DNA of 62,272 nt from a virus (Duplodnaviria > Caudoviricetes). The notes under the pieces were generated by a model. The model saw only the letters and a program-made list of their open reading frames with translations, was not told the origin of the DNA and did not search any database. The stretch spans positions 1 through 62,272 of the IMG/VR virus record IMGVR_UViG_3300049489_000902; one strand, given 5' to 3'. This document shows, one piece after another, positions 41,049 through 60,017 of the stretch; the first letter of the stretch is position 1, and the number at the start of each line of letters is the position of its first letter. Made by a program: the position numbers and the translations under genes.

Positions 41049-41642
41049 CTAATTATTTACTGCATAATTAGCTAGAATTTGACTTGAAGCGGCAGGAATA
41101 AAAGAAACAAATGTAACCATATCAAATCCAAAACCTGAACTAGCTACAACATAATCAATAGATTCGATTAGTCTTCTACCATTATGAAACACTTCAATTT
41201 TAAATTCATTACCATCTAATGTTTGATTTAAGAATTTATCAGGAGTATGAAATGTTCTATTTACTCCATCTTTAGGTCCAGTTAATACAATTCCTTGTTT
41301 TAAAGAATAATTAAGATTGCCTGAGCCACCTGCACTTAACCCAGTTACAATTCCAGCCGATTGTAAGAAAGCTTTTTGATCAGCATTAAATTGAATTAAA
41401 TCAATATCGCTACACATAACTACTATTTCATTACATAATATTTTATGTTTTAAAGTCCCTTTTAATAAGGAAGCTTTAATATCAGATTCCGCTACACCTG
41501 GAATTGCTAATAAATCTCTAGAGCAATGCCAACCAATAGGATAATTAAATATAGAAATAATTTTTTTCTCTATAGCCTTATTATAAACTATAAAGCAGCC
41601 AAATAATTTTTGACCATAAGCAAAGTCATTAAATCCAGACAT
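41049..41642 (-). CDS. Hypothetical virion protein
   Basis: GPKDGVNRTF...VFHNGRRL...DY motif. Confidence 0.6.
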   Translation of the reverse strand: MSGFNDFAYGQKLFGCFIVYNKAIEKKIISIFNYPIGWHCSRDLLAIPGVAESDIKASLLKGTLKHKILCNEIVVMCSDIDLIQFNADQKAFLQSAGIVTGLSAGGSGNLNYSLKQGIVLTGPKDGVNRTFHTPDKFLNQTLDGNEFKIEVFHNGRRLIESIDYVVASSGFGFDMVTFVSFIPAASSQILANYAVNN

Positions 41643-41680: not shown

Positions 41681-42370
41681 TTAATCATTTTTCTTAAAAC
41701 TATCACGAATTGTAATTGTTACAGATCTCTCAACTTCAGGATTTTCCGCTGTAGCTTTTACATCGCCAAATAATGTATGAATTAATTGATCATAGCTTTT
41801 TTCAGTTATATCTTTTTTAGATATAACTTTAGGTTTTAATCCAGGATTTTTCAAATCTTCATCTTTATCTAATAATATTTTTTCTATTTCTTTTATAGAT
41901 AAATCTTCTAATTTTTCTACAGTAAGACGATATCTTACAAATAATAATTCTTCTATATAATTTAAAGAACCAACTCCAGCTTGAGTTTCTGAAAAATCTC
42001 CATCATCAATACCAGATCTTAATCCTTTTTCCAATGAATTAACTAAGATTCTTAAATAAGAATTTTGAAACTCTTCTGAAGTATCATATTGTTCTTTTAA
42101 ATTAGAAGCTGCTTCTAATAGTTTTTTAAAAGCTTTTATCTTACCATTCATGCCTTCGGAAACAAATGGTTCCGATCTTGAATATGATTGTAAATTTCTT
42201 CTTGGATTAAAAAATGTTTCTTGATCTATTCTTCTGGTATCGAATGCTTGCTTAACTATAGGTTTATTTATATAATTAGCTCTTACTTTAATAGATGAAT
42301 TTCTGTCATCCAAAGTATTTTTAGATGAAGAAATTAACTCAAAGATATCAAGAGCGTCATTTATATTCAA
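41681..42370 (-). CDS. Hypothetical protein
   Basis: Intact 229-aa ORF coupled to neighbour. Confidence 0.6.
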   Translation of the reverse strand: MNINDALDIFELISSSKNTLDDRNSSIKVRANYINKPIVKQAFDTRRIDQETFFNPRRNLQSYSRSEPFVSEGMNGKIKAFKKLLEAASNLKEQYDTSEEFQNSYLRILVNSLEKGLRSGIDDGDFSETQAGVGSLNYIEELLFVRYRLTVEKLEDLSIKEIEKILLDKDEDLKNPGLKPKVISKKDITEKSYDQLIHTLFGDVKATAENPEVERSVTITIRDSFKKND

Positions 42371-42672
42371 TCAATACTCCACATTTCGACTCTAACAGCT
42401 TGTCCAGAAGCGTCCGCAGTCCTGAACCATATTGCCCCAACAACGCGATTAGAAAAGGAAACCATGGCATAAGGAGTATTATATTTTAATGTACCATGGA
42501 CTGTAGTTCCATCGAATGAATATTCAAATGTTCCAGCTGTACCTGCATGAGCTAATGAAAAACTCATATTTGTAGTTCTAAAAGGAACAGAGACATCAGG
42601 AGTAGCTGCAAATGCAGCAACAGAGACTGTAGCTAATTTATAGTAATTATAATTTGAAGCTGTATTTGCCAT
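42367..42672 (-). CDS. Small beta-rich virion protein
   Basis: FEYSFDGTTVHG...IWFR. Confidence 0.6.
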   Translation of the reverse strand: MANTASNYNYYKLATVSVAAFAATPDVSVPFRTTNMSFSLAHAGTAGTFEYSFDGTTVHGTLKYNTPYAMVSFSNRVVGAIWFRTADASGQAVRVEMWSID

Positions 42673-42681
42673 GTCATTATG

Positions 42682-42855
42682 CTAAATAATTACTCTTTTA
42701 ACCATTATTTCTTGATCCCAAAATTCATGAAATGACCAACTATATATTGGATGCTCATATTTTCTACGACCAATTCTTTGATAAGGAAGAGATCTTCTAA
42801 CTGGCACTATAGGATCTCTTTTTACACAGATATCTATTGTTTTATCATAAGTCAT
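42682..42855 (-). CDS. Array unit 18: MCP fragment (res ~72-85) + tag with read-through tail
   Basis: MTYDKTIDICVKRDPIVPVRRSLPYQRIGRRKYEHPIYSWSFHEFWDQEIMVKRVII; PVRRSLPYQRIGRR vs MCP PIRKNLDYHGIARR (7/14). Confidence 0.65.
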   Translation of the reverse strand: MTYDKTIDICVKRDPIVPVRRSLPYQRIGRRKYEHPIYSWSFHEFWDQEIMVKRVII

Positions 42856-42974
42856 TCAAACTTCCAGTTGTATATCTCATATCTAGAATATTTCCTCCAT
42901 TGTTTGACAGCACTTAAGCGAATAGTAGGATTTGAAAATAATTCAAACATAGGAAAAACATCAGGTTTATTCAT
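42852..42974 (-). CDS. Array unit 17: MCP fragment (res ~130-146) + tag
   Basis: MNKPDVFPMFELFSNPTIRLSAVKQWRKYSRYEIYNWKFE; vs MCP PTFEIYANPKVRIAEVK (8/17). Confidence 0.75.
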   Translation of the reverse strand: MNKPDVFPMFELFSNPTIRLSAVKQWRKYSRYEIYNWKFE

Positions 42975-43107
42975 AAAATGTCCAGTCATATATTTTATGA
43001 TATCCATCAATTATAGAAAATCTTCTAGTTCTTACATCAGAAATCCTAATACTAGGACATGAAGAAATTTCAAATATAGGAACTGTTACTCTGGTGCCTT
43101 TGATCAT
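42967..43107 (-). CDS. Array unit 16: MCP fragment (res ~124-154) + tag
   Basis: MIKGTRVTVPIFEISSCPSIRISDVRTRRFSIIDGYHKIYDWTFYE; vs MCP GDRVTIPTFEIYANPKVRIAEVKKRRFNVID (17/31). Confidence 0.85.
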   Translation of the reverse strand: MIKGTRVTVPIFEISSCPSIRISDVRTRRFSIIDGYHKIYDWTFYE

Positions 43108-43108
43108 T

Positions 43109-43252
43109 TTAAATTATACTTATGGTTAAATTGTCCCAAAATTCATGAAATTCAAAATCATATATTTGATACTTTCTATATGAAACGAATCCTTTCATAG
43201 CGTATCTTGTGAATAATTGCATAGTCTGAGGGCTAAATGTTATATCATCCAT
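43109..43252 (-). CDS. Array unit 15: unassigned insert (possibly gp23-type capsid motif) + tag with read-through tail
   Basis: MDDITFSPQTMQLFTRYAMKGFVSYRKYQIYDFEFHEFWDNLTISII. Confidence 0.65.
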   Translation of the reverse strand: MDDITFSPQTMQLFTRYAMKGFVSYRKYQIYDFEFHEFWDNLTISII

Positions 43253-43346
43253 AAAACTTCCAGTCATATATTTTATAAAATATGTAGCTGTAAATAACAT
43301 TAGGGCTCCAATCATAATATATTATACCGCTTTCTCCTCTAATCAT
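43245..43346 (-). CDS. Array unit 14: insert (possible tail-tube motif) + tag
   Basis: MIRGESGIIYYDWSPNVIYSYIFYKIYDWKFYG. Confidence 0.6.
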   Translation of the reverse strand: MIRGESGIIYYDWSPNVIYSYIFYKIYDWKFYG

Positions 43347-43521
43347 GAAATTTCCAATCATATATTTCATATATAGGATTTGTATTAAATACACTCCTAG
43401 CAATTCCTCTATAATCTAAATTACGTCTAATAGGAGCTGCCATTGCCATAGCAAGCTTAGCTTTACCTTCTTTAGTATGTAAATTACTTAATAACTTGCT
43501 AATAATATCATCTTTATTCAT
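43339..43521 (-). CDS. Array unit 13: MCP fragment (res ~48-84) + tag
   Basis: MNKDDIISKLLSNLHTKEGKAKLAMAMAAPIRRNLDYRGIARSVFNTNPIYEIYDWKFHD; 19/27 identical to MCP TQDGKLALAQAMANPIRKNLDYHGIAR. Confidence 0.9.
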   Translation of the reverse strand: MNKDDIISKLLSNLHTKEGKAKLAMAMAAPIRRNLDYRGIARSVFNTNPIYEIYDWKFHD

Positions 43522-43624
43522 AAAATCTCCAATCAAATATTTTATAATTACAATCAATTATAGTCATTACAGGAAATATTACAAATTCTCTTATATCAGC
43601 ATTAATAATATAGTCTTTATTCAT
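43514..43624 (-). CDS. Array unit 12: insert + tag
   Basis: MNKDYIINADIREFVIFPVMTIIDCNYKIFDWRFYE; only a faint resemblance to MCP GEFLGVMPVV. Confidence 0.6.
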   Translation of the reverse strand: MNKDYIINADIREFVIFPVMTIIDCNYKIFDWRFYE

Positions 43625-43751
43625 AAAATCGCCAATCGAATAAATAATGATAATAATCAAGAGTGGTTCGTAAAGGGCTTGTCATTAATTTAGCAAGCCT
43701 CTTTCTGCCTTTTTTAGTTTTTAATAATTTGTTTACTTTACCTTTATTCAT
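43617..43751 (-). CDS. Array unit 11: MCP fragment (res ~52-79) + tag
   Basis: MNKGKVNKLLKTKKGRKRLAKLMTSPLRTTLDYYHYLFDWRFYE; vs MCP VNRALLTQDGKLALAQAMANPIRKNLDY (13/28 ungapped). Confidence 0.8.
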   Translation of the reverse strand: MNKGKVNKLLKTKKGRKRLAKLMTSPLRTTLDYYHYLFDWRFYE

Positions 43752-43854
43752 AGAAACACCAGTCATATAAAATATAGCCTATACTTATCGTATATTTAAT
43801 ATAATTTATAGGATAAGTAATTTCATTTATTGTTATTAATGCATTTGTTACCAT
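43744..43854 (-). CDS. Array unit 10: tail-sheath C-terminal fragment + tag
   Basis: MVTNALITINEITYPINYIKYTISIGYILYDWCFYE; TYPINYIKYTISIG vs sheath TYGINFIYIKINVG. Confidence 0.65.
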   Translation of the reverse strand: MVTNALITINEITYPINYIKYTISIGYILYDWCFYE

Positions 43855-43855
43855 A

Positions 43856-44035
43856 TTATTCGCTAAATTCCCAATCATAGATAGAATATCCAAACATATT
43901 ATTCATTATATTAATAATATACGCATCTTCAGCGTCCATTATTTCTTGCTTAGCTTTATTTAGTACTTCACTGTATATAGTGTAATCATGACTGTAATCT
44001 AATTCTGAAAAATTAGGATAAATTATCTTATTCAT
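43856..44035 (-). CDS. Array unit 9: MCP fragment (res ~155-175) + tag
   Basis: MNKIIYPNFSELDYSHDYTIYSEVLNKAKQEIMDAEDAYIINIMNNMFGYSIYDWEFSE; KAKQEIMDAEDA vs MCP KARQEIMAQEDA (9/12). Confidence 0.8.
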   Translation of the reverse strand: MNKIIYPNFSELDYSHDYTIYSEVLNKAKQEIMDAEDAYIINIMNNMFGYSIYDWEFSE

Positions 44036-44129
44036 AAAACCTAAAATCGTACAAACTCATACAAGAATAACAAAAATCTATGAAGCTTTCAATATCAGAT
44101 TCTAATATCGTAAATATTGGTTCATTCAT
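44028..44129 (-). CDS. Array unit 8: unassigned insert + tag
   Basis: MNEPIFTILESDIESFIDFCYSCMSLYDFRFYE. Confidence 0.6.
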   Translation of the reverse strand: MNEPIFTILESDIESFIDFCYSCMSLYDFRFYE

Positions 44130-44271
44130 AAAACTTCCAGTCATATATTTGATTAGAACCTGCCCAAGATATTATATCCGTATAATCATTCACATTCATG
44201 AATATTCTAGGACATTGTAACGTATGGCTTTCTATTTCTTTTTGTATAGATCTAAGTTGTTTTTTATTCAT
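44122..44271 (-). CDS. Array unit 7: MCP fragment (res ~196-229) + tag
   Basis: MNKKQLRSIQKEIESHTLQCPRIFMNVNDYTDIISWAGSNQIYDWKFYE; ungapped vs MCP KRNLVDLKAQVDRWDLVTDKFFMNIVEFTDMLKW (9/34 plus conservative changes). Confidence 0.75.
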   Translation of the reverse strand: MNKKQLRSIQKEIESHTLQCPRIFMNVNDYTDIISWAGSNQIYDWKFYE

Positions 44272-44425
44272 GAAATTTCCAATCATATATTCCAGCAATT
44301 AGATAATTAAGCATAGCAAATACTGCATTATCTTCTTGTGCCATTATTTCTTGACGCTCTTTCCATTCTTTAATATCTAATATAGGATATGGTTTACGTT
44401 GAAAATTTTTCATATAATCATTCAT
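44264..44425 (-). CDS. Array unit 6: MCP fragment (res ~161-176) + tag
   Basis: MNDYMKNFQRKPYPILDIKEWKERQEIMAQEDNAVFAMLNYLIAGIYDWKFHE; RQEIMAQEDNAVFA vs MCP RQEIMAQEDANVFA (12/14). Confidence 0.88.
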   Translation of the reverse strand: MNDYMKNFQRKPYPILDIKEWKERQEIMAQEDNAVFAMLNYLIAGIYDWKFHE

Positions 44426-44540
44426 AGAAACTCCAGTCGTATATTTCATTAATGCCAAGCTCATCATTATAAAACATATGTACTAATTTATTAATTATTG
44501 GATCTTTGTTATGTATTAAATACAAATCTTCTTCATCCAT
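44418..44540 (-). CDS. Array unit 5: unassigned insert + tag
   Basis: MDEEDLYLIHNKDPIINKLVHMFYNDELGINEIYDWSFYE. Confidence 0.65.
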   Translation of the reverse strand: MDEEDLYLIHNKDPIINKLVHMFYNDELGINEIYDWSFYE

Positions 44541-44648
44541 AGAATTTCCAATCGTATACAGTAATATAGTTATAAAAAGCAAATTTAAAAATGATTGAGT
44601 AGAAATTAAATTATTTTGATACATTAAATAAATTTCTTCATCAGTCAT
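44533..44648 (-). pseudogene. Array unit 4: frameshifted cassette (tag in -1 frame; the 0 frame reads into unit 5)
   Basis: ATG-to-tag-stop span is 116 nt; 0 frame MTDEEIYLMYQNNLISTQSFL..., -1 frame ...KFAFYNYITVYDWKFYG*. Confidence 0.55.
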
Positions 44649-44772
44649 AAAATTTCCAATCATTAATATAATTAACTATGTCCACATAATAAAAATGTGT
44701 AAATAAAGTTTTAATCTTAGTATCAGCTGCGTATCTGTAATCATACATAGAATGTATATCAATATTATTCAT
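44641..44772 (-). CDS. Array unit 3: unassigned insert + tag
   Basis: MNNIDIHSMYDYRYAADTKIKTLFTHFYYVDIVNYINDWKFYD. Confidence 0.65.
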   Translation of the reverse strand: MNNIDIHSMYDYRYAADTKIKTLFTHFYYVDIVNYINDWKFYD

Positions 44773-44848
44773 AAAATCTCCAAATATAAATATTATTTGG
44801 TAATTCAAGATATTCTGGAAGATAAGTAGGTTGACAAAATTCAATCAT
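44765..44848 (-). CDS. Array unit 2: unassigned insert + tag
   Basis: MIEFCQPTYLPEYLELPNNIYIWRFYE. Confidence 0.6.
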   Translation of the reverse strand: MIEFCQPTYLPEYLELPNNIYIWRFYE

Positions 44849-45041
44849 TAAATTTCCAATCATATATTTCATGTATACTAAATTTACCAATACCTCTAGC
44901 ATTTACTATTCCTATGCCAATCGTCTCATAACATGTCCAACCAATTAGCTTATTCTTTGGTTCATCTGCATCAAGAACAGTTATTTCTTGTTTTACTGGA
45001 ATTTTACCAACAAATTCAATATCACCACTTTTATAAATCAT
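44841..45041 (-). CDS. Array unit 1: MCP C-terminal fragment (res ~282-323) + tag
   Basis: EFVGKIPVKQEITVLDADEPKNKLIGWTCYETIGIGIVNARG vs MCP EFLGVMPVVQDIEVLPADEPKLLSIGWVVSEIIGIGIVNPRG (27/42), then IYDWKFND. Confidence 0.9.
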   Translation of the reverse strand: MIYKSGDIEFVGKIPVKQEITVLDADEPKNKLIGWTCYETIGIGIVNARGIGKFSIHEIYDWKFND

Positions 45042-45124: not shown

Positions 45125-45175
45125 TACTGCATCAGCGCTCAAAATGTGCCCATTCTTATTAAGGAAAAATATATT

Positions 45176-45889
45176 ATGGCTTCTCTTGATCTTACAAACA
45201 AAATTTTTGGTAAACTTACTGCACTACACACTGTCCCGAATAAACCTGGCGACCGCCATATTAAATGGAAGTGCAAATGTGAATGCGGTAATTTTCACCA
45301 TGTTACAACTAATCAACTTACTTCAGGAAGATCAACTCACTGCGGTTGCGTTAAACCTGAATCAAAAAGAAAAATTGACATAACTAATAGAAAATTTGGC
45401 AAATTAACCGCCATTGAACCAACTTACCATAATGAAAAACTAAAGTGGAAATGTATTTGTGAATGTGGCAAAGAATGCATTGTTATTACAGATAAATTAA
45501 TGTCTGGTCACACTAAATCTTGTGGTTGTAATAAGATAACTGTACATTACGATAATCATTATAGAAGAAATGCTTCTAATGGAAGTGGAGTTCTAACTGA
45601 ACTTAAATCTTATTTTCAACAAAGATATTCTGATGGAAATCTAACCTTTGAACAATTTGAAGAATTATCAAAAAATAATTGCCATTATTGTGGTGCTGGT
45701 CCATCAAATACAATTAAATTAAAGTATAAAGATTATACGGCATTTATTAAATATAATGGTTTAGATAGAAAAGACAATAATAAAAAGCACGATTCAGACA
45801 ATGTAGTGACTTGTTGTAAGAACTGTAATTATTCAAAAAGAAATAGTTCATATGCAGAATTTTCGGAAAGGATTGGTAAAGGATTATGA
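45176..45889 (+). CDS. HNH homing-endonuclease-like protein with two N-terminal FGKLT..WKCxCECG DNA-binding repeats
   Basis: Start moved to ATG 45176 (AAGGA upstream); CHYCG...NGLDRKDN...NVVTCCKNCNYSK. Confidence 0.8.
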   Translation: MASLDLTNKIFGKLTALHTVPNKPGDRHIKWKCKCECGNFHHVTTNQLTSGRSTHCGCVKPESKRKIDITNRKFGKLTAIEPTYHNEKLKWKCICECGKECIVITDKLMSGHTKSCGCNKITVHYDNHYRRNASNGSGVLTELKSYFQQRYSDGNLTFEQFEELSKNNCHYCGAGPSNTIKLKYKDYTAFIKYNGLDRKDNNKKHDSDNVVTCCKNCNYSKRNSSYAEFSERIGKGL

Positions 45890-46497
45890 GTTTAGTAAAT
45901 AAAAAATTTGGAAGATTAACTGTTTTAAGAGAGGTTAGAAAAGGAAAAACTCTTAGAAAAATATACTGGGATTGCTTATGTGATTGCGGTAAAGAAACTA
46001 ATGTCTATGGCGTTTATTTAGTTAATGGAGATACTAAATCTTGTGGGTGTTTAAAAACTGAAAAGAAACCAGGTTTAAAGAAACCAAAGTCAAGAGAACA
46101 TTATCAAAGAGGTTCTGCTAAAAAAGCATATTCAACCTCATATACAAATGAAGGAGATACCATTTCATTTGAAGATTTTTATAGGTTAGCACAAATGGAT
46201 TGTTATTATTGTGGACAAAAACCAATTAACGCAATTAATGCGTATAATGATAAGAGATACCTTCCAGAAGCAAAAGAAAATGGAAAATTTATCTATAATG
46301 GACTAGATAGAGTTGATAATAGTCTGCCTCACACATTAGAAAATTGTGTTACTTGTTGTAAACATTGTAATTATGCAAAAAGAGATATGTCTCAGCAAAA
46401 ATTTTTAGAATATCGCCAACAAAGATTTAATCATTTCCAAAAAAGTAAAGAATTTTTTGAAGGAGAAATTAAATTAAAAGAAATTTTAAACCGTTAA
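45886..46497 (+). CDS. HNH homing-endonuclease-like protein (paralog of upstream gene)
   Basis: FGRLTV..WDCLCDCG..KSCGC; CYYCG...NGLDRVDN...NCVTCCKHCNYAK. Confidence 0.8.
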   Translation: MSLVNKKFGRLTVLREVRKGKTLRKIYWDCLCDCGKETNVYGVYLVNGDTKSCGCLKTEKKPGLKKPKSREHYQRGSAKKAYSTSYTNEGDTISFEDFYRLAQMDCYYCGQKPINAINAYNDKRYLPEAKENGKFIYNGLDRVDNSLPHTLENCVTCCKHCNYAKRDMSQQKFLEYRQQRFNHFQKSKEFFEGEIKLKEILNR

Positions 46498-46519
46498 AGA
46501 TTATAAATATAATAAAAAC

Positions 46520-46554
46520 AAAAACGCTCAGGATTTTAGCCCTGAGCGTTTTTT
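46520..46554. terminator. Bidirectional intrinsic terminator between convergent HNH and MCP genes
   Basis: AAAAACGCTCAGG-N8-CCTGAGCGTTTTT. Confidence 0.85.
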
Positions 46555-46573
46555 ATGTCTTTAATTCAGCGAA

Positions 46574-47578
46574 TTATCCGACTGAAACTGATTTACGACC
46601 AGCAGCGCAACCACGAGGATTGACGATACCAATTCCGATAATCTCAGAAACAACCCAACCAATTGAAAGCAATTTGGGTTCGTCAGCAGGAAGAACTTCA
46701 ATGTCTTGGACCACAGGCATAACACCTAGGAACTCGCCAGCCGCTGAACCGTATACGGTACCTTGTGGAACAATCTTACTTACAAGAACATCAGCACCCC
46801 AGATATGGGCATAAAGACCAGTTTGGAGAACTTCGCGCATGGTAACGGGATCGAGATCTCCACCACCTACGCCTTGTCCACCACCTGAACCCCACTTTAA
46901 CATATCGGTAAATTCAACAATGTTCATGAAGAATTTATCAGTTACGAGGTCCCAACGATCAACTTGGGCTTTAAGATCAACTAAGTTCCTCTTTAATAGA
47001 CCGGTGTCAGCTAAGTCGATAAGAGTATTTTCAACTGAAGCAGCGGAATCAATGGCAGCGAAAACGTTTGCGTCTTCTTGAGCCATGATTTCTTGACGTG
47101 CTTTTTGAACGGCACGGTCAATAACGTTAAATCTGCGTTTTTTGACTTCGGCAATACGAACCTTGGGATTCGCGTAAATTTCAAAGGTAGGAATCGTAAC
47201 GCGGTCGCCGAATACACGGCTTTCTGGACCTGAACCATTTGAAGAAATTACAACGGCAGCAACATCAATATCTCTTTCGTATGAGATCTGTTGACCCTGT
47301 TGAACATTCTCAACAACTAAGGCACGACGAGCAATTCCATGGTAATCTAAATTCTTACGAATTGGATTCGCCATAGCTTGAGCAAGAGCTAATTTACCGT
47401 CTTGTGTTAAGAGGGCACGGTTAACCATGTCATCTTTTTCGGCATCACTGGCTTCACGAGTAAGACCAGCGTTTGAAGGCATATTATCATCAAGAATTGA
47501 AGCATATTTCGCGATAGTGGCGAAAGCTTCTTTGACAGAAGAGGCGTTAAGTTCGCCTTGAGCATTAAACATAGACAT
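46574..47578 (-). CDS. Major capsid protein (HK97-fold)
   Basis: 334 aa; follows protease-scaffold and decoration genes; visibly higher GC/biased codons; AGGAG RBS; strong terminator; spine-helix-like QKARQEIMAQEDANVF and C-terminal EIIGIGIVNPRG. Confidence 0.85.
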   Translation of the reverse strand: MSMFNAQGELNASSVKEAFATIAKYASILDDNMPSNAGLTREASDAEKDDMVNRALLTQDGKLALAQAMANPIRKNLDYHGIARRALVVENVQQGQQISYERDIDVAAVVISSNGSGPESRVFGDRVTIPTFEIYANPKVRIAEVKKRRFNVIDRAVQKARQEIMAQEDANVFAAIDSAASVENTLIDLADTGLLKRNLVDLKAQVDRWDLVTDKFFMNIVEFTDMLKWGSGGGQGVGGGDLDPVTMREVLQTGLYAHIWGADVLVSKIVPQGTVYGSAAGEFLGVMPVVQDIEVLPADEPKLLSIGWVVSEIIGIGIVNPRGCAAGRKSVSVG

Positions 47579-56447: not shown

Positions 56448-59400
56448 TTAGAATAATCTTTGTTTCTTTCCAAGGCTATTAGAAAGAACTCTAACTATAT
56501 CATTATCTTCAACTGGTGCATGAGTTGATTCGCCTTCTCCTCTGGTTCCAACCTGTGGAATGAATCCAGCAGTTTTAACAGTGAGTGTAGGAGCTTGAGC
56601 AACAATATTCTTAAAGGACTCTAATCCTTCAGCATTGAATTTCAAGATCTTATCAACTTGAGCAGCTTTGGCTTCACGAACATTTAAGCATAATCCACGA
56701 TCTGCCATTGCTTCAACTAATTCCCATGCCTCAGCTAATTTAACTTTATGGGCATCCATTTCGGCTTCCTGAGAGGCTTTCGCGTGCTCTTTAACTAGTT
56801 CAGCTGCAAACTCTGAACCACCCTCTGCATTGGCATAATATTTCTTGTAATATGCAACCGCAGCAGCATCAACGCCTTCAGCAACTAATGAATCTAATTC
56901 TGAAGCAGTAATTGATCCAGTAGCAATTAAGTTACGAATTGCAAGAGCTTCTTTGCGAACGTTTGGATTTGAGGTAGCAACATCAACTACTTTAGTATGA
57001 ATTGCTTCTAAATCTTCTACTTCGTCAAGATCATCACTAACAGTAATATCAAGATCTAATTTAGCAGATCCTTGTGGATGAGCCTCATTAAGGATAGGAT
57101 TAAACTCACTGGCTAATTTAGCTCTTAAAGTAGCTCTATCAGAAGCTTGCGCTAAATCAAGAGTTAATTTATTTGTAGTAGGATTAAAATCTCCCTTGAT
57201 ATCTTGTTCATCACAAGCTTCGCAATCATCAGCAGCAGCTCTGTCAAGGTCAGCTAATTCAGATTCAATTGCATCTTGTTCTGCTTCAATTTCACTTAAA
57301 GCAACTTCATCATCTTTAATTTCGTCAGTAACAACCTCGTCATTAAGCAATTCAGCAATTAAAGCCTCAGCTTCTTCATCACTAACATCTTCTGACTCAG
57401 TAGTTTCAGCTAATTCACTTTCCATTTGAGCACGCTTCATAATCATGTCTGAACTACGAGCGTATTTAACGAAAGCATTTAGTAATTGGAAACCATCAGC
57501 AATTGCAGTTTTTGCATCAGCAATTGAATCTTCAGTTACAGAAGAAATTACAGAAGCATTCTCGGTAGTTACAGCATTATTTTCATAAACTGAAACGATT
57601 TGAGCAAGTTCTTCTGAATGATCATTCAATGAAGCAAGTGATTCTTTCATGGCATCAACTAAACCTGAATTTAATTGTTTGCGCATAACTTGTAATGAAG
57701 CAGTTGCAGTTACTGGAGCAGTAGGCTCAGCAGCAATTTCTCCCATTTCAGATTGTTCACCAGTTAAAGCCCTTACAGCTTCAACTAAATCGCTTGAAAG
57801 ATTTTGAATTTGACTTGAGATATCTTCGATTTTTGCCGTAGGGTCTTCTACATCAGCAGGAGCAACAACAGGGGAGACAGGTGCGGCGGGCTCAGCAGTT
57901 GTCATTTCAGGAGCAGCTTGACCTAATTTTGGTAAGCCAAGAATCATATTTACGGCATCTTCTGGTTTGCTTTTAACAACAGAACCATCAGGTAAAACAG
58001 TTCCTTCTTTAGCAGTAGCTGCTTCAGCAGGAGTTAATCTACGCATTTTACCAGTTTGTGAAATCGCAACTAAAACATTAGGAACAATAACGTCAGCTGG
58101 TAATATGGTATCAGCTTTATTAGTATCTAAACCTTTTAATACTTTATCAGTTTCCTCGTCAAGTTTTTTACCTAAATTAGGATCTACTGGCTTTGCAGTT
58201 GAAGGAGTAACTACCATTTCAGGAAGTTCAGTTACTTGGGCACGAACTTCTTGTAATAGAATTTTACCAAATTCAGCAGTGGCAATTTTATCAACAGAAA
58301 GACTTGAGTCAACATCAAGTAAATCAGCAACAGAAGCTTCACGGACTAAAGTCTCGCCAACAAATACTTTCCAGGCACTATCAGTTACTTTAGCTGATTT
58401 AACGAATTTGCCAGTTAGTTTCTCTCCACGAGAAAGCTTTTGTTTAATTTCTTTGTCGCCAGGATAAAGGTCTTCAACTTTTCCAACCTCAGGGAAAGGT
58501 TTCTTTCCTTGCATGTGTTTATCACCTTTACGAGCTTCTTCATTACCTGGATCAACTTTATATTGTTGTTTACCTTTGCCAACAGGGGCTTCGGTTCCAG
58601 CATGATAAGCTCTTGATTCTAAAGCAGCTTTAGCAGCTGATAAAGCATTAAGGCGTTGTGATGCACGAGCAAGCAATTTCTTTTTCTCTAAATCGCCTGG
58701 AGCTAAACCAGTTGAACCACCAAGATCATCGACTTTCATTTGACGATCTTCGTCTCGTAATTTAGCATTCATTGGGTCGGCTGGATATTGAGTCCCACCT
58801 TTGACGGGATCAACAGTTCCTTGAAAATACGCTGTCTTTTTACTCATTGTTTCCTCTTCAGTAATTTTTGATATTTTTGTTGTTAAATCTGCAAGAGTGG
58901 CTTGCATCATATTAATTTTCTCAGACAATTCAGCAGTTATTTCTTTTGCACTTGAAATTTCAGTTTCCTGAGCATATCTTTGACCAGGAGTGGTCAATTG
59001 CTCAGTATCCCCTGTAAATGCATCAGAACTATCTACGTCAGAAGAATCCATCTCTTCTTGAAGTTTTTCAATTCTTTCAATTGCTTTCTCTAAATCAGCT
59101 TTTAATTCATCAAGAGAATTTGTGTTTAATGAAATATTTTCACTTAAACCCTCTTTATTGTTAAAAGATAAATTAGCAGAATATTCATTAGCAATTTTAT
59201 TTAATTTATTTTGCTTTTGTGCTACATAAGAATTTAATGCATTTACAGAAGCAACTATATTTTTAATCTTAGCTTTACGATCAGCACCATTAACTACAAT
59301 AGATAACTCAATAGGACTTAAGTCTAAATTGATTTCACCATAACAAGTTTTATGACGCATGTGTTCGCAGAAATCTTTTTCTGCTCTAGCTACTCTTCCA

Positions 59401-60017
59401 CAATCTGTACAAACTGCTTTTCCAACTGCTGTACCCATTGATACATCATTAGAATAACCAGTTGAAACTTTTCTTGCCAAGTCAGGATAATTAATTTTAT
59501 CTAATGCACAAAGAGCAATTACTCTTTTTAATTTACGATCATAGTAAGTATCAACAATAAATCCTCTTACAAAGTCAACTGAACTTGATTTATGATCAAT
59601 ACAAAGTGGCTTTCCAACCCACTTCTTATGTGCAATTAATAGCTCTTTTTCAGGGAAAATGTCAGCGTTGGCATTTTTGTATGGCTTAATTGAAGGGTCA
59701 TTAGATTTCCACTTCATTGATTCGCCAGTAACTTCCCAACCTACTTGAACTTCTTCTCCCTTAGCAGTTAATTTAACTGTACCATCATCATTTAATGATG
59801 AAGCTTCAGCAGCGTGCATCATAATAGCTGAGAAATAAAGAAAATCATCAGCTTTAGGAGCTACTTTTCTTTTTTCGGCATCAGCCTTTGATTCTTTTTT
59901 AAATTCAGTAATGGTTTCGGCGAATTTTGCTAATATAGCAGGGTCTACTTGAGATATTGATGTTTCAGTTGATTCAATGCGTTCAATCTGATAAGCTTCG
60001 CCTATTTTAATAAACAT
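56448..60017 (-). CDS. Prohead protease fused to long acidic scaffold
   Basis: NANADIFP..EL, GKPLCIDH, VSMG, CTDCG..CEH, ELSIVVNGAD protease motifs; acidic coiled-coil remainder with an internal ~75-aa duplication (AYFQGT.../AYHAGT...). Confidence 0.75.
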   Translation of the reverse strand: MFIKIGEAYQIERIESTETSISQVDPAILAKFAETITEFKKESKADAEKRKVAPKADDFLYFSAIMMHAAEASSLNDDGTVKLTAKGEEVQVGWEVTGESMKWKSNDPSIKPYKNANADIFPEKELLIAHKKWVGKPLCIDHKSSSVDFVRGFIVDTYYDRKLKRVIALCALDKINYPDLARKVSTGYSNDVSMGTAVGKAVCTDCGRVARAEKDFCEHMRHKTCYGEINLDLSPIELSIVVNGADRKAKIKNIVASVNALNSYVAQKQNKLNKIANEYSANLSFNNKEGLSENISLNTNSLDELKADLEKAIERIEKLQEEMDSSDVDSSDAFTGDTEQLTTPGQRYAQETEISSAKEITAELSEKINMMQATLADLTTKISKITEEETMSKKTAYFQGTVDPVKGGTQYPADPMNAKLRDEDRQMKVDDLGGSTGLAPGDLEKKKLLARASQRLNALSAAKAALESRAYHAGTEAPVGKGKQQYKVDPGNEEARKGDKHMQGKKPFPEVGKVEDLYPGDKEIKQKLSRGEKLTGKFVKSAKVTDSAWKVFVGETLVREASVADLLDVDSSLSVDKIATAEFGKILLQEVRAQVTELPEMVVTPSTAKPVDPNLGKKLDEETDKVLKGLDTNKADTILPADVIVPNVLVAISQTGKMRRLTPAEAATAKEGTVLPDGSVVKSKPEDAVNMILGLPKLGQAAPEMTTAEPAAPVSPVVAPADVEDPTAKIEDISSQIQNLSSDLVEAVRALTGEQSEMGEIAAEPTAPVTATASLQVMRKQLNSGLVDAMKESLASLNDHSEELAQIVSVYENNAVTTENASVISSVTEDSIADAKTAIADGFQLLNAFVKYARSSDMIMKRAQMESELAETTESEDVSDEEAEALIAELLNDEVVTDEIKDDEVALSEIEAEQDAIESELADLDRAAADDCEACDEQDIKGDFNPTTNKLTLDLAQASDRATLRAKLASEFNPILNEAHPQGSAKLDLDITVSDDLDEVEDLEAIHTKVVDVATSNPNVRKEALAIRNLIATGSITASELDSLVAEGVDAAAVAYYKKYYANAEGGSEFAAELVKEHAKASQEAEMDAHKVKLAEAWELVEAMADRGLCLNVREAKAAQVDKILKFNAEGLESFKNIVAQAPTLTVKTAGFIPQVGTRGEGESTHAPVEDNDIVRVLSNSLGKKQRLF

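Follow-up and report, generated by a model that had tools for sequence, protein, structure and literature searches.

One of the closest described systems to the locus presented here is Ccm of the staphylococcal satellite SaPIbov5, which, in the parts of PMC8569155 that deal with it, is a capsid-protein homolog that redirects the assembly of the helper capsid. Our subject is an array of 18 mini-genes on a contig of a giant uncultured phage (IMG/VR record IMGVR_UViG_3300049489_000902). This contig of 62,272 bases is the whole record and is referred to as the window. Half of the mini-genes carry short inserts that resemble segments of the phage's own major capsid protein (MCP), and the array very probably belongs, in split and expanded form, to an undescribed family of mini-proteins that derive from the capsid protein and occur sporadically in phage-G-like megaphages. 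Like Ccm as that source presents it, the products are a mobile element's relatives of a capsid protein, and Ccm is the nearest precedent for the mechanism that we favour. Unlike Ccm, which is encoded by a satellite and aimed at a helper, they are the phage's own short pieces and a half-length paralog, organized in tagged arrays with a putative effect on assembly.

The fold and the family from which all nine inserts derive, together with the longer paralogs that we call mini-MCPs, are those of gp27 of Bacillus phage G (PDB 6wkk; PHROG 2522). Unlike gp27, the inserts comprise 14-49 residues and the mini-MCPs end near MCP residue 183, and neither can form the complete fold. None of the array units contains a full HK97 fold; at 27-66 amino acids, each holds one segment. 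For its part, gp27 is without the ~40-residue N-terminal extension of the resident MCP. A further parallel is the Gol peptide of the T4 capsid protein gp23, an internal piece that is active on its own in a phage-host conflict and, with the Lit protease, reportedly triggers a host defence. It too is a short piece of a capsid protein, although Gol is part of the full protein whereas here separate genes encode the pieces. Finally, precursor families of the prochlorosin type consist of many small genes with conserved ends and variable cores. The array likewise has a conserved terminal sequence around a fast-evolving middle, but no modifying enzyme is evident beside it in a PHROG scan and its cores come from a structural protein.

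The array extends from 45041 to 42682 on the minus strand (Table 1); the coordinates given in the preliminary description of this locus, 42682-44425, omit units 1-5 (44418-45041). It is built from 18 copies of a junction of ~24 nucleotides (nt), located between 44864 and 42721 on the same strand, and 18 mini-open reading frames (mini-ORFs) of 27-66 codons, each of which has its ATG in one junction and its stop in the next. In most units the stop overlaps the following ATG (ATGAATAA), shifting the frame by +1 per unit. Unit 4 reads through an out-of-frame junction (44556) into unit 5, to which it has a weak likeness (Smith-Waterman (SW) score 31), and in unit 10 the starts are displaced. The junction contains no stop in units 15 and 18, which end in a longer tail, similar in the two, with unit 16 starting two bases past the stop of unit 15. 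The mini-ORFs share a C-terminal tag, (I/L)-(Y/F)-D-W-x-F-(Y/H)-(E/D), which was found nowhere else in the window.

The array is coding. There is no stop in the 805 codons of the designated frames, compared with 79 and 139 in the other two frames, and the summed log10 probability that all units stay open under per-unit shuffling is -35.9. Between junctions, up to 7 of 24 bases vary, and the codon variation in the tag is mostly synonymous (TAT/TAC, GAT/GAC, TTT/TTC, AGA/CGA) or replaces one aromatic residue by another. By a crude estimate, the nonsynonymous/synonymous ratio of the tag frame is 0.36, compared with 0.82 and 0.56 for the other frames. A Shine-Dalgarno (SD)-like core at the usual distance is present in 23 of 43 large genes but in just 4 of the 18 units, so that translation probably starts at unit 1 and passes to most of the others by termination-reinitiation coupling.

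In outline this organization resembles that of CRISPR arrays, with regular conserved junctions, variable inserts that resemble a viral gene, and the gain and loss of units. It differs in that the junctions are coding and vary synonymously, the inserts are of unequal size (60-160 nt) and the likeness to the target exists only at the protein level. We rejected a CRISPR array on the grounds of the coding junctions, the saturation of synonymous sites and the lack of any cas-like PHROG match among the 21 neighbours scanned. Rfam gave no match inside the array.

In order to decide which units carry capsid pieces, each was aligned to the resident MCP by SW with 300 shuffles per unit. For nine of the 18 units (1, 6, 7, 9, 11, 13, 16, 17 and 18) none of the 300 shuffles reached the observed score. 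The SW scores and z values are 135 and 25.7 for unit 1, 67 and 10.4 for unit 6, 63 and 11.6 for unit 7, 49 and 5.2 for unit 9, 69 and 10.5 for unit 11, 108 and 19.6 for unit 13, 96 and 21.0 for unit 16, 57 and 9.8 for unit 17, and 40 and 4.4 for unit 18. The remaining nine have z <= 1.6. Profile hidden Markov models (HMMs) pick out the same nine units: unit 1 scores 63.5 bits, and with the mini-MCP HMM units 9 and 18 score 15.0 and 9.7 bits, compared with a shuffle maximum of 5.9. Likenesses to the MCP seen by eye in units 2, 3, 8, 10, 12 and 15 were dropped, as they find no support in the shuffle test or the HMMs. Comparison of the units with the other proteins among the 49 of the window produced nothing above the shuffle null.

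The resident MCP has the complete HK97 feature set: an N-arm, an E-loop, a P-domain with spine helix, and an A-domain. Its AlphaFold2 (AF2) model has a mean predicted local distance difference test (pLDDT) score of 87.7 and a Foldseek match to HK97 prohead II (E 7.4e-11). Residues 43-323 match the solved capsid protein of phage G (E 5.4e-81), and phage G is the closest cultured relative by MCP, with 46.7% identity across residues 39-325. The nearest MCPs in IMG/VR and metagenome contigs are only 69-77% identical, many of them on records of 200-500 kb. We compared 80 related MCPs, which are 81-100% identical to one another (mean 92.5%), and the resident MCP is 76% identical to their consensus; by these identities it is an outlier of a very uniform clade. 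No closer relative was returned from IMG/VR or the metagenome collection, and close kin are available only as contigs of two runs, X2 and X3.

The preliminary description had claimed that the inserts sample a few hotspots of the MCP repeatedly and skip its N-terminus. The repeated coverage stands, with support from both shuffles and HMMs: residues ~48-85 are covered three times (units 11, 13 and 18), ~124-154 twice (units 16 and 17, at 124-154 and 130-149) and ~159-175 twice (units 6 and 9, at 146-177 and 150-172). The N-terminal part of unit 6, put forward as a possible third copy of 124-154, is instead a contiguous spine-helix stretch, MCP 146-157. No insert alignment touches residues 1-47, and no unit matches 86-123, 178-195, 236-274 or 324-334 either. 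In the window the clustering does not exceed chance: if nine segments are placed at random on 334 residues, a union of 181 residues or fewer arises with p=0.35 and four or more overlapping pairs with p=0.72, and residues 1-47 are left untouched with p=0.22. On the window alone, neither the hotspots nor the N-terminal gap go beyond chance. On the MCP model, segment 48-85 falls on the N-arm helices and segment 146-177 on the spine helix. Segment 124-154 takes in P-domain strands as well as the beginning of that helix, 196-235 helices of the A-domain plus one strand, and 275-323 the P-domain sheet. The covered stretches are the easiest to detect because they are the most conserved of the MCP family.

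Each copy is distinct from the resident MCP, to which the inserts are 28-62% identical, and from its sister copies, as had been noted. The statement that the differences are largely conservative holds only in part. Among 142 mismatches, 62 have a positive BLOSUM62 score, against a baseline of 16% positive for random pairing in which one should bear in mind that local alignment itself favours positives; 20 score zero and 60 are negative.

The origin of the inserts is clearer from a family of paralogs. An exhaustive HMMER search with the MCP gave, among the best 150 representatives, 28 short proteins of 137-228 amino acids, the mini-MCPs. These cover MCP ~45-183, which includes the N-arm helices, E-loop, first P-domain strands and spine helix. 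They start with a motif, M-x-H-(D/P)-x-I-V-I-x-S-x-G-K (the hairpin motif), that is repeated once or twice inside the protein and stands ahead of each module; an internal copy occupies the position of MCP ~100-121 and by eye resembles that stretch. The window units begin with M-N-K-D-(D/Y)-I-I-(S/N), which, judged by eye, is like the first half of the hairpin motif only. Pfam has no family for the 10 mini-MCPs searched nor for the MCP, and a search of the ESM Atlas with mini-MCP P0128 gave no usable match.

Units 6, 11, 13, 16 and 17 score higher against mini-MCPs than against the resident MCP or any other MCP. The best SW scores (mini-MCP versus resident MCP) are 87 (P0111) versus 67 for unit 6, 89 (P0126) versus 69 for unit 11, 130 (P0128) versus 108 for unit 13, 122 (P0126) versus 96 for unit 16 and 72 (P0032) versus 57 for unit 17. 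The same five units carry derived residues in common with the mini-MCPs. Units 1 and 7 derive from MCP parts that the mini-MCP family rarely covers, and score best against MCPs of the clade (157 versus 135 and 82 versus 63 for the resident). For all seven units from the N-terminal half, the mini-MCP HMM outscores the MCP-family HMM, although for unit 9 by only 15.0 to 14.6 bits. Units and mini-MCPs also have boundaries in common: when units 11 and 16 are aligned with P0126 and unit 13 with P0128, the matches continue into the module junctions. The shared module limits are a start before G-x-R-V, an end at I-D-R-Y and a start near MCP 45-50, and the units of a second phage, G022, behave likewise. 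FastTree places five of the seven units inside the mini-MCP clade, which is sister to the clade MCPs. IQ-TREE -fast places all seven there (approximate likelihood ratio test 91.5); this method groups non-overlapping fragments together, an artefact, so that only clade membership is used and the score comparisons weigh more. By these sequence criteria, the MCP-like inserts are modules of the paralog family, and the MCP is covered repeatedly because modules were inherited and duplicated, not resampled.

An earlier suggestion was that the inserts are samples of the capsids of competing phages, captured from their capsid genes as a memory at the protein level. Placing the inserts among MCP homologues agrees with it in one respect, since for each of the nine some other protein is a closer match than the resident MCP, and units 1 and 7 score higher against clade MCPs. 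By the same token, a picture in which all inserts are closest to the resident gene and decay neutrally does not hold. However, the best relatives of units 6, 11, 13, 16 and 17 are mini-MCPs and not other MCPs; five inserts fall in the paralog clade and not in any MCP, and module boundaries are common across phages. There is no DNA-level identity to any MCP, with synonymous sites saturated between insert and MCP (proportion of synonymous differences, pS, 0.48-1.09; of nonsynonymous differences, pN, 0.30-0.50), no acquisition machinery lies nearby, and the junctions are coding, unlike CRISPR repeats. At sites where the resident MCP departs from the clade consensus, the inserts agree with the resident 12 times, with the consensus 16 times and with neither 20 times. 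The shared module boundaries and derived residues speak against sampling from competitors, and we disfavour such a memory as very improbable.

The same design recurs in other megaphages. G022 (435 kb, complete) has at least five overlapping mini-ORFs with the tag (T/N)-F-(L/I)-V-C-A, each next start overlapping the stop. These carry pieces of MCP 52-80, 124-154 and 160-178 in native order, and the array looks like a mini-MCP split at its junctions. This array (L270:1164-2003 (-), corresponding to C1 ~145.5-146.3 kb) also contains a proline-rich unit and a terminal ORF of 67 amino acids without the tag. Elsewhere in G022, at C1 ~393 kb (L271:1450-1815 (-)), lies a mini-MCP-like ORF of 121 amino acids with the hairpin motif and an N-arm-like piece. 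G001 (268 kb) has three capsid-piece genes of 64, 60 and 214 amino acids (L232:9109-10443 (+), corresponding to C1 ~44.1-45.4 kb). The mini-MCP, P0044, is 209 kb from the MCP gene in a tRNA island with 16 tRNAs in 20 kb, and the genes of 64 and 60 amino acids precede it. The 60-amino-acid ORF (L232:9595-9777) is the best match of unit 7 among mini and mosaic proteins (SW 56), and the 64-amino-acid gene has a 72-87-like piece, as in unit 18 (by eye). In the same island a Cys-rich ORF of 93 amino acids abuts the 64-amino-acid gene and an HNH-like gene follows the 214-amino-acid gene. The G001 mini-MCP is 55-63% identical in amino acids to the MCP of its own phage, with pS of 0.74-0.80 and pN of 0.26-0.28. 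The mini-MCP family is old and held MCP-like, because synonymous sites are saturated and yet this identity is kept.

A profile search for the second module (module 2) among proteins of 19-93 amino acids gave 40 matches, of which ~13 are stand-alone modules on manual reading and many others are exon-like pieces of interrupted MCP genes. Two of the small proteins, P0178 and P0185 (54 and 52 amino acids; P0185 is on a 480,146-nt contig), carry module 2 with a third type of tag, R-I-P-V-V-I-G-F/Y, and probably belong to another split array. An interrupted MCP gene of this kind is found on a 142-kb IMG/VR record (L335:1099-3574), where exon-like ORFs (MCP 1-~97 and ~105-164) lie around two LAGLIDADG-like ORFs of 286 and 271 amino acids. 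The second of these MCP exons starts at a segment that resembles the hairpin motif, and many small database proteins that end just past Q-K-A-R-Q-E-I resemble it. Downstream of the head block, two relatives have spaced 11-mers that recur 5 times (L004:10640-11927) and 7 times (L022:10053-12804) and may represent other repeat arrays or repeat proteins.

That said, the distribution is sporadic. Mini-MCPs were matched in one of 28 further records, in addition to G001, and four complete relatives have no clear mini-MCP besides the MCP itself, with one weak match in G005. Within ~6 kb of 160 related MCP loci there are no tags and one marginal second MCP-like piece (E 0.77). The junction DNA pattern and a two-junction pattern had no matches in viral_contigs, the latter being insensitive (it occurs only once in the window). 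A profile of all units, run against 5.8 billion proteins, found only the window's own ORFs, with 10 matches among 41 candidates. Searches of viral_contigs with mini-MCP P0067 gave only MCP genes (39-45%) and with P0185 mostly full MCP genes. Full-text literature searches, supplements aside, found no description of capsid-piece mini-gene arrays or of mini-MCP paralogs, and both the capsid-derived mini-protein family and its arrays are in this sense undescribed.

Comparison with close strains shows how the array changes. The X2 and X3 contigs are mostly 88-99% identical to the window over the region. Whole units are gained and lost between close strains: X3 is without unit 12, skipping from 43510 to 43614 (103 nt, one period, with 17 letters fitting both sides), and in place of the region of units 5-6 it has 17 letters. 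Recombination between junctions would add and remove whole units in this way. Of the genes in the region the MCP has changed least, differing from X3 by 2.9% (30 differences in 1032 nt), with 4.2-5.7% for flanking genes and 4.5-12% for the array; four of the five listed MCP differences are synonymous. There are 458 differences in all, of which 40 are listed and 39 scored (47173, in the MCP, was left out). Among those listed, the array has 13 nonsynonymous and 7 synonymous differences (20), the flanking genes 3 and 13 (16), and three are intergenic; the contrast between array and flank is significant (Fisher p=0.008). Unit 16 has 7 nonsynonymous and 2 synonymous listed changes relative to X2 and X3. 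What is conserved is the tag and the reading frames; the inserts change rapidly, under relaxed or diversifying constraint.

These data bear on a further possibility, that the units are silent cassettes that recombine into the MCP gene, as in the variation of pilin (pilS) and VlsE (vls). It would fit with partial variant copies that adjoin an expressed gene and do not represent its N-terminus. However, third-position identity between inserts and MCP is 26-57%, which leaves no tract long enough for gene conversion, the MCP is conserved between strains as just described with mostly synonymous listed changes, and the units have starts and stops of their own. We reject this type as the least probable of the alternatives.

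The genomic setting raises the question of whether the peptides help the phage to assemble its own head, by binding the resident MCP or its protease in the manner of a scaffold, a chaperone or a regulator. The array lies in the head-gene block directly behind the MCP gene; in X3 it follows after 48 letters, with no HNH genes in between, and the predicted locations of the pieces on the MCP model (N-arm, spine helix and P-domain) would suit such a role. A core factor should be conserved, though, and none of the 160 related MCP loci has a clear second piece or tag within ~6 kb, none of the four complete relatives has a mini-MCP gene, the G001 and G022 genes are far from the head block, and units come and go between strains. 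We consider a helper role rather improbable.

Between the MCP gene and the array the window has two HNH homing-endonuclease genes in tandem. The X3 contig joins 45058 to 46560 through the 48 other letters, and the HNH genes are a recent insertion that separates the MCP gene and the array. HNH relatives stand beside the MCP in 23 of 80 related loci (manual count). A strong hairpin (Table 1) is terminator-like in both directions: on the minus strand 14 pairs form the stem and a T run comes after it, and on the plus strand there are 13 pairs. Two sub-threshold Rfam matches to small RNAs fall on the hairpin at 46483-46555, just after the MCP stop. The window is AT-rich (24-40% GC), and its long ORFs are nearly all on the minus strand. 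It also encodes a tail sheath and a protein with a head-protease domain. The latter is a very long protease fusion, a 1189-amino-acid ORF (56448-60017 (-)) of which residues 121-223 match the head-maturation protease family PHROG 18299 (E 4.1e-14). The ORFs flanking the array (42367-42672, 41681-42370 and 41049-41642) have no PHROG match.

The N-terminus of the MCP, which the inserts do not represent, had been explained either as a propeptide cleaved near T-R-E-A at residues 40-43 or as simply poorly conserved. The latter agrees with our results: residues 1-47 lie outside the conserved core, and the resident equals the consensus at 26 of 47 positions (manual count) versus 76% overall, the poorest agreement of any part of the protein. 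The phage G MCP gene has 849 nt and 282 codons, and its solved chain aligns only from window residue 43, which is why we regard residues 1-~40 as a clade-specific extension. The extension is modelled, with lower confidence, as a single helix at 15-31. Among the 28 mapped mini-MCPs only P0096 reaches below residue 28 (from residue 8); most start at ~45-61. The clade consensus does not retain T-R-E-A but does retain (I/L)-x-K-Y-A at MCP 22-26 (47500-47515), which makes the latter a candidate alternative for a putative MCP cleavage site. In the available parts of PMC12484599, nothing is said about MCP cleavage in phage G.

Table 1. Coordinates of the array units and of the genes and elements next to them in the window.
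Feature	Position	Strand	Description
Unit 18 (last)	42682..42855	-	MCP 72-85 piece; longer tail type as in unit 15
Units 16, 17	42852..43107	-	MCP 124-154 and 130-149: P-domain strands and spine-helix start ('module 2')
Units 14, 15	43109..43346	-	No MCP match; unit 15 with longer tail
Unit 13	43339..43521	-	MCP 48-84 piece: N-arm helices
Units 10-12	43514..43878	-	Unit 10 no significant match; unit 11 MCP 52-80; unit 12 no match
Units 8, 9	43856..44129	-	Unit 8 no match; unit 9 MCP 150-172 piece
Unit 7	44122..44271	-	MCP 196-235 piece: A-domain helices
Unit 6	44264..44425	-	MCP 146-177 piece: spine helix, long 'module 3' form
Units 2-5	44418..44848	-	Starts 44848, 44772, 44648, 44540; no detectable MCP likeness
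Unit 1	44841..45041	-	MCP 275-323 piece and tag; own SD-like core, AGGA at -7
Two HNH homing-endonuclease genes	45146..46497	+	247 and 203 amino acids; PHROG 374, E 1.8e-30 and 1.1e-17
Terminator-like hairpin	46520..46553	both	Between MCP stop and HNH gene ends; consensus scan only
Resident MCP gene	46574..47578	-	334 amino acids, HK97 fold; PHROG 2522, E 5.3e-69

What might such an array do? Expression, coupling, binding and target are inferred. The peptides would be made late, alongside the MCP, and each would present an MCP-like segment that competes for the surface that normally binds it. The most likely target would be the assembling capsid protein, the assembly of which would be poisoned or modulated, and the main victims would be relatives that infect the same cell, with MCPs ~92% alike. 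The aromatic tag would give the units one and the same docking or pairing strand. A role in conflict is favoured over a core role in assembly because of the sporadic distribution, the turnover between strains and the relaxed or diversifying evolution of the inserts. We favour interference with capsid assembly first, with Ccm as the closest parallel, and a decoy role against capsid-sensing immunity second. An array split from the paralog family, acting by mimicry, is as a whole our best explanation, if a tentative one that falls short of an even chance; of the mechanism taken by itself, late peptides acting by mimicry of the MCP, we are a little less confident.

The decoy role would have the peptides act as antagonists of host capsid sensors, a variant library of MCP epitopes that occupy receptors without activating them. 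It is related to a preliminary proposal that the inserts are diversified alleles of epitopes recognized by host sensors, and is compatible with the relaxed or diversifying evolution of the inserts (13 nonsynonymous to 7 synonymous differences). The sporadic distribution, the turnover of units and the raised ratio of nonsynonymous to synonymous change fit an arms race, and the mini-MCP family stays MCP-like despite its saturated synonymous sites. Bacterial sensors that bind MCPs have been published, namely CapRel and, in the available parts of 10.64898/2026.01.04.697583, Avs proteins. According to the same parts of that source, however, Avs recognizes conserved core folds through extended interfaces, which is beyond peptides of 27-66 amino acids. 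In addition, fragments that act as triggers are as likely to activate a sensor as to block it, the phage is uncultured and without a known host or sensor, and the literature searches found no phage-encoded MCP decoy. We regard decoys as unlikely.

Several observations weigh against the account by capsid mimicry, and some of these would suit the alternative that the units are functionless, decaying relics of mini-MCP or MCP copies, produced by recombination near homing-endonuclease sites and open by chance. Nine of the 18 units are without any MCP likeness, so 'capsid piece' misdescribes half of the array, and decay could have erased the likeness. Between paralogous inserts, the three codon positions diverge to about the same extent. 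Without selection 82% of changes would be nonsynonymous, and the ratio of 13 to 7 in the array, which lies near this, does not depart from it significantly (binomial p=0.07). Both this ratio and that of 3 to 13 rest on the 40 of 458 differences that are listed; the inserts may be nearly unconstrained. Genes of the HNH and LAGLIDADG types crowd the MCP locus in relatives, as decay near such sites would have it. On the other side, there are 18 consecutive open frames in rotating reading frames in DNA of 26% GC, both the tag and the overlaps of starts with stops have been retained while varying synonymously, and the same design, with another tag, is present in G022. Decay alone seems to us quite improbable, less so than capture or cassettes and more so than a helper role. 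Other points concern the evidence for the family and for the mimicry mechanism. Units 9 and 18 fall elsewhere in the FastTree tree, where the placement of fragments is unstable, and the AF2 model of mini-MCP P0126, in which each copy of the motif is a beta-hairpin, is a poor one (pLDDT 68, predicted template modelling score 0.29). The antisense HNH genes and the terminator-like hairpin cut the array off from the MCP in the window, and its transcription therefore needs read-through or a promoter of its own. Lastly, a poison of assembly must spare the resident MCP, and the inserts are no less like the resident MCP than like the clade MCP.

In summary, the question of hotspots in the MCP is answered in the negative, since the pattern is one of module inheritance and not of repeated sampling. 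The same gene is under a second pressure, as in this clade its locus is dense with homing endonucleases and intron-like insertions. Should the peptides be produced and bind capsid proteins or sensors, a virus would here be putting its own structural protein to a new use, in modular, tagged and diversified form, for interference or evasion. A broader proposal, about which we are more doubtful, is that megaphages carry evolvable 'mimicry arrays', in which coupled mini-proteins present variant capsid pieces on a docking tag, are reshuffled at the junctions, and poison the heads of relatives or blind capsid sensors. If true, such arrays would form a new class of phage conflict system, matching at the level of protein the arrays made of nucleic acid, and would give a name and a testable role to many 'hypothetical' small genes of giant phages (28 among the best 150 representatives, plus the stand-alone modules).

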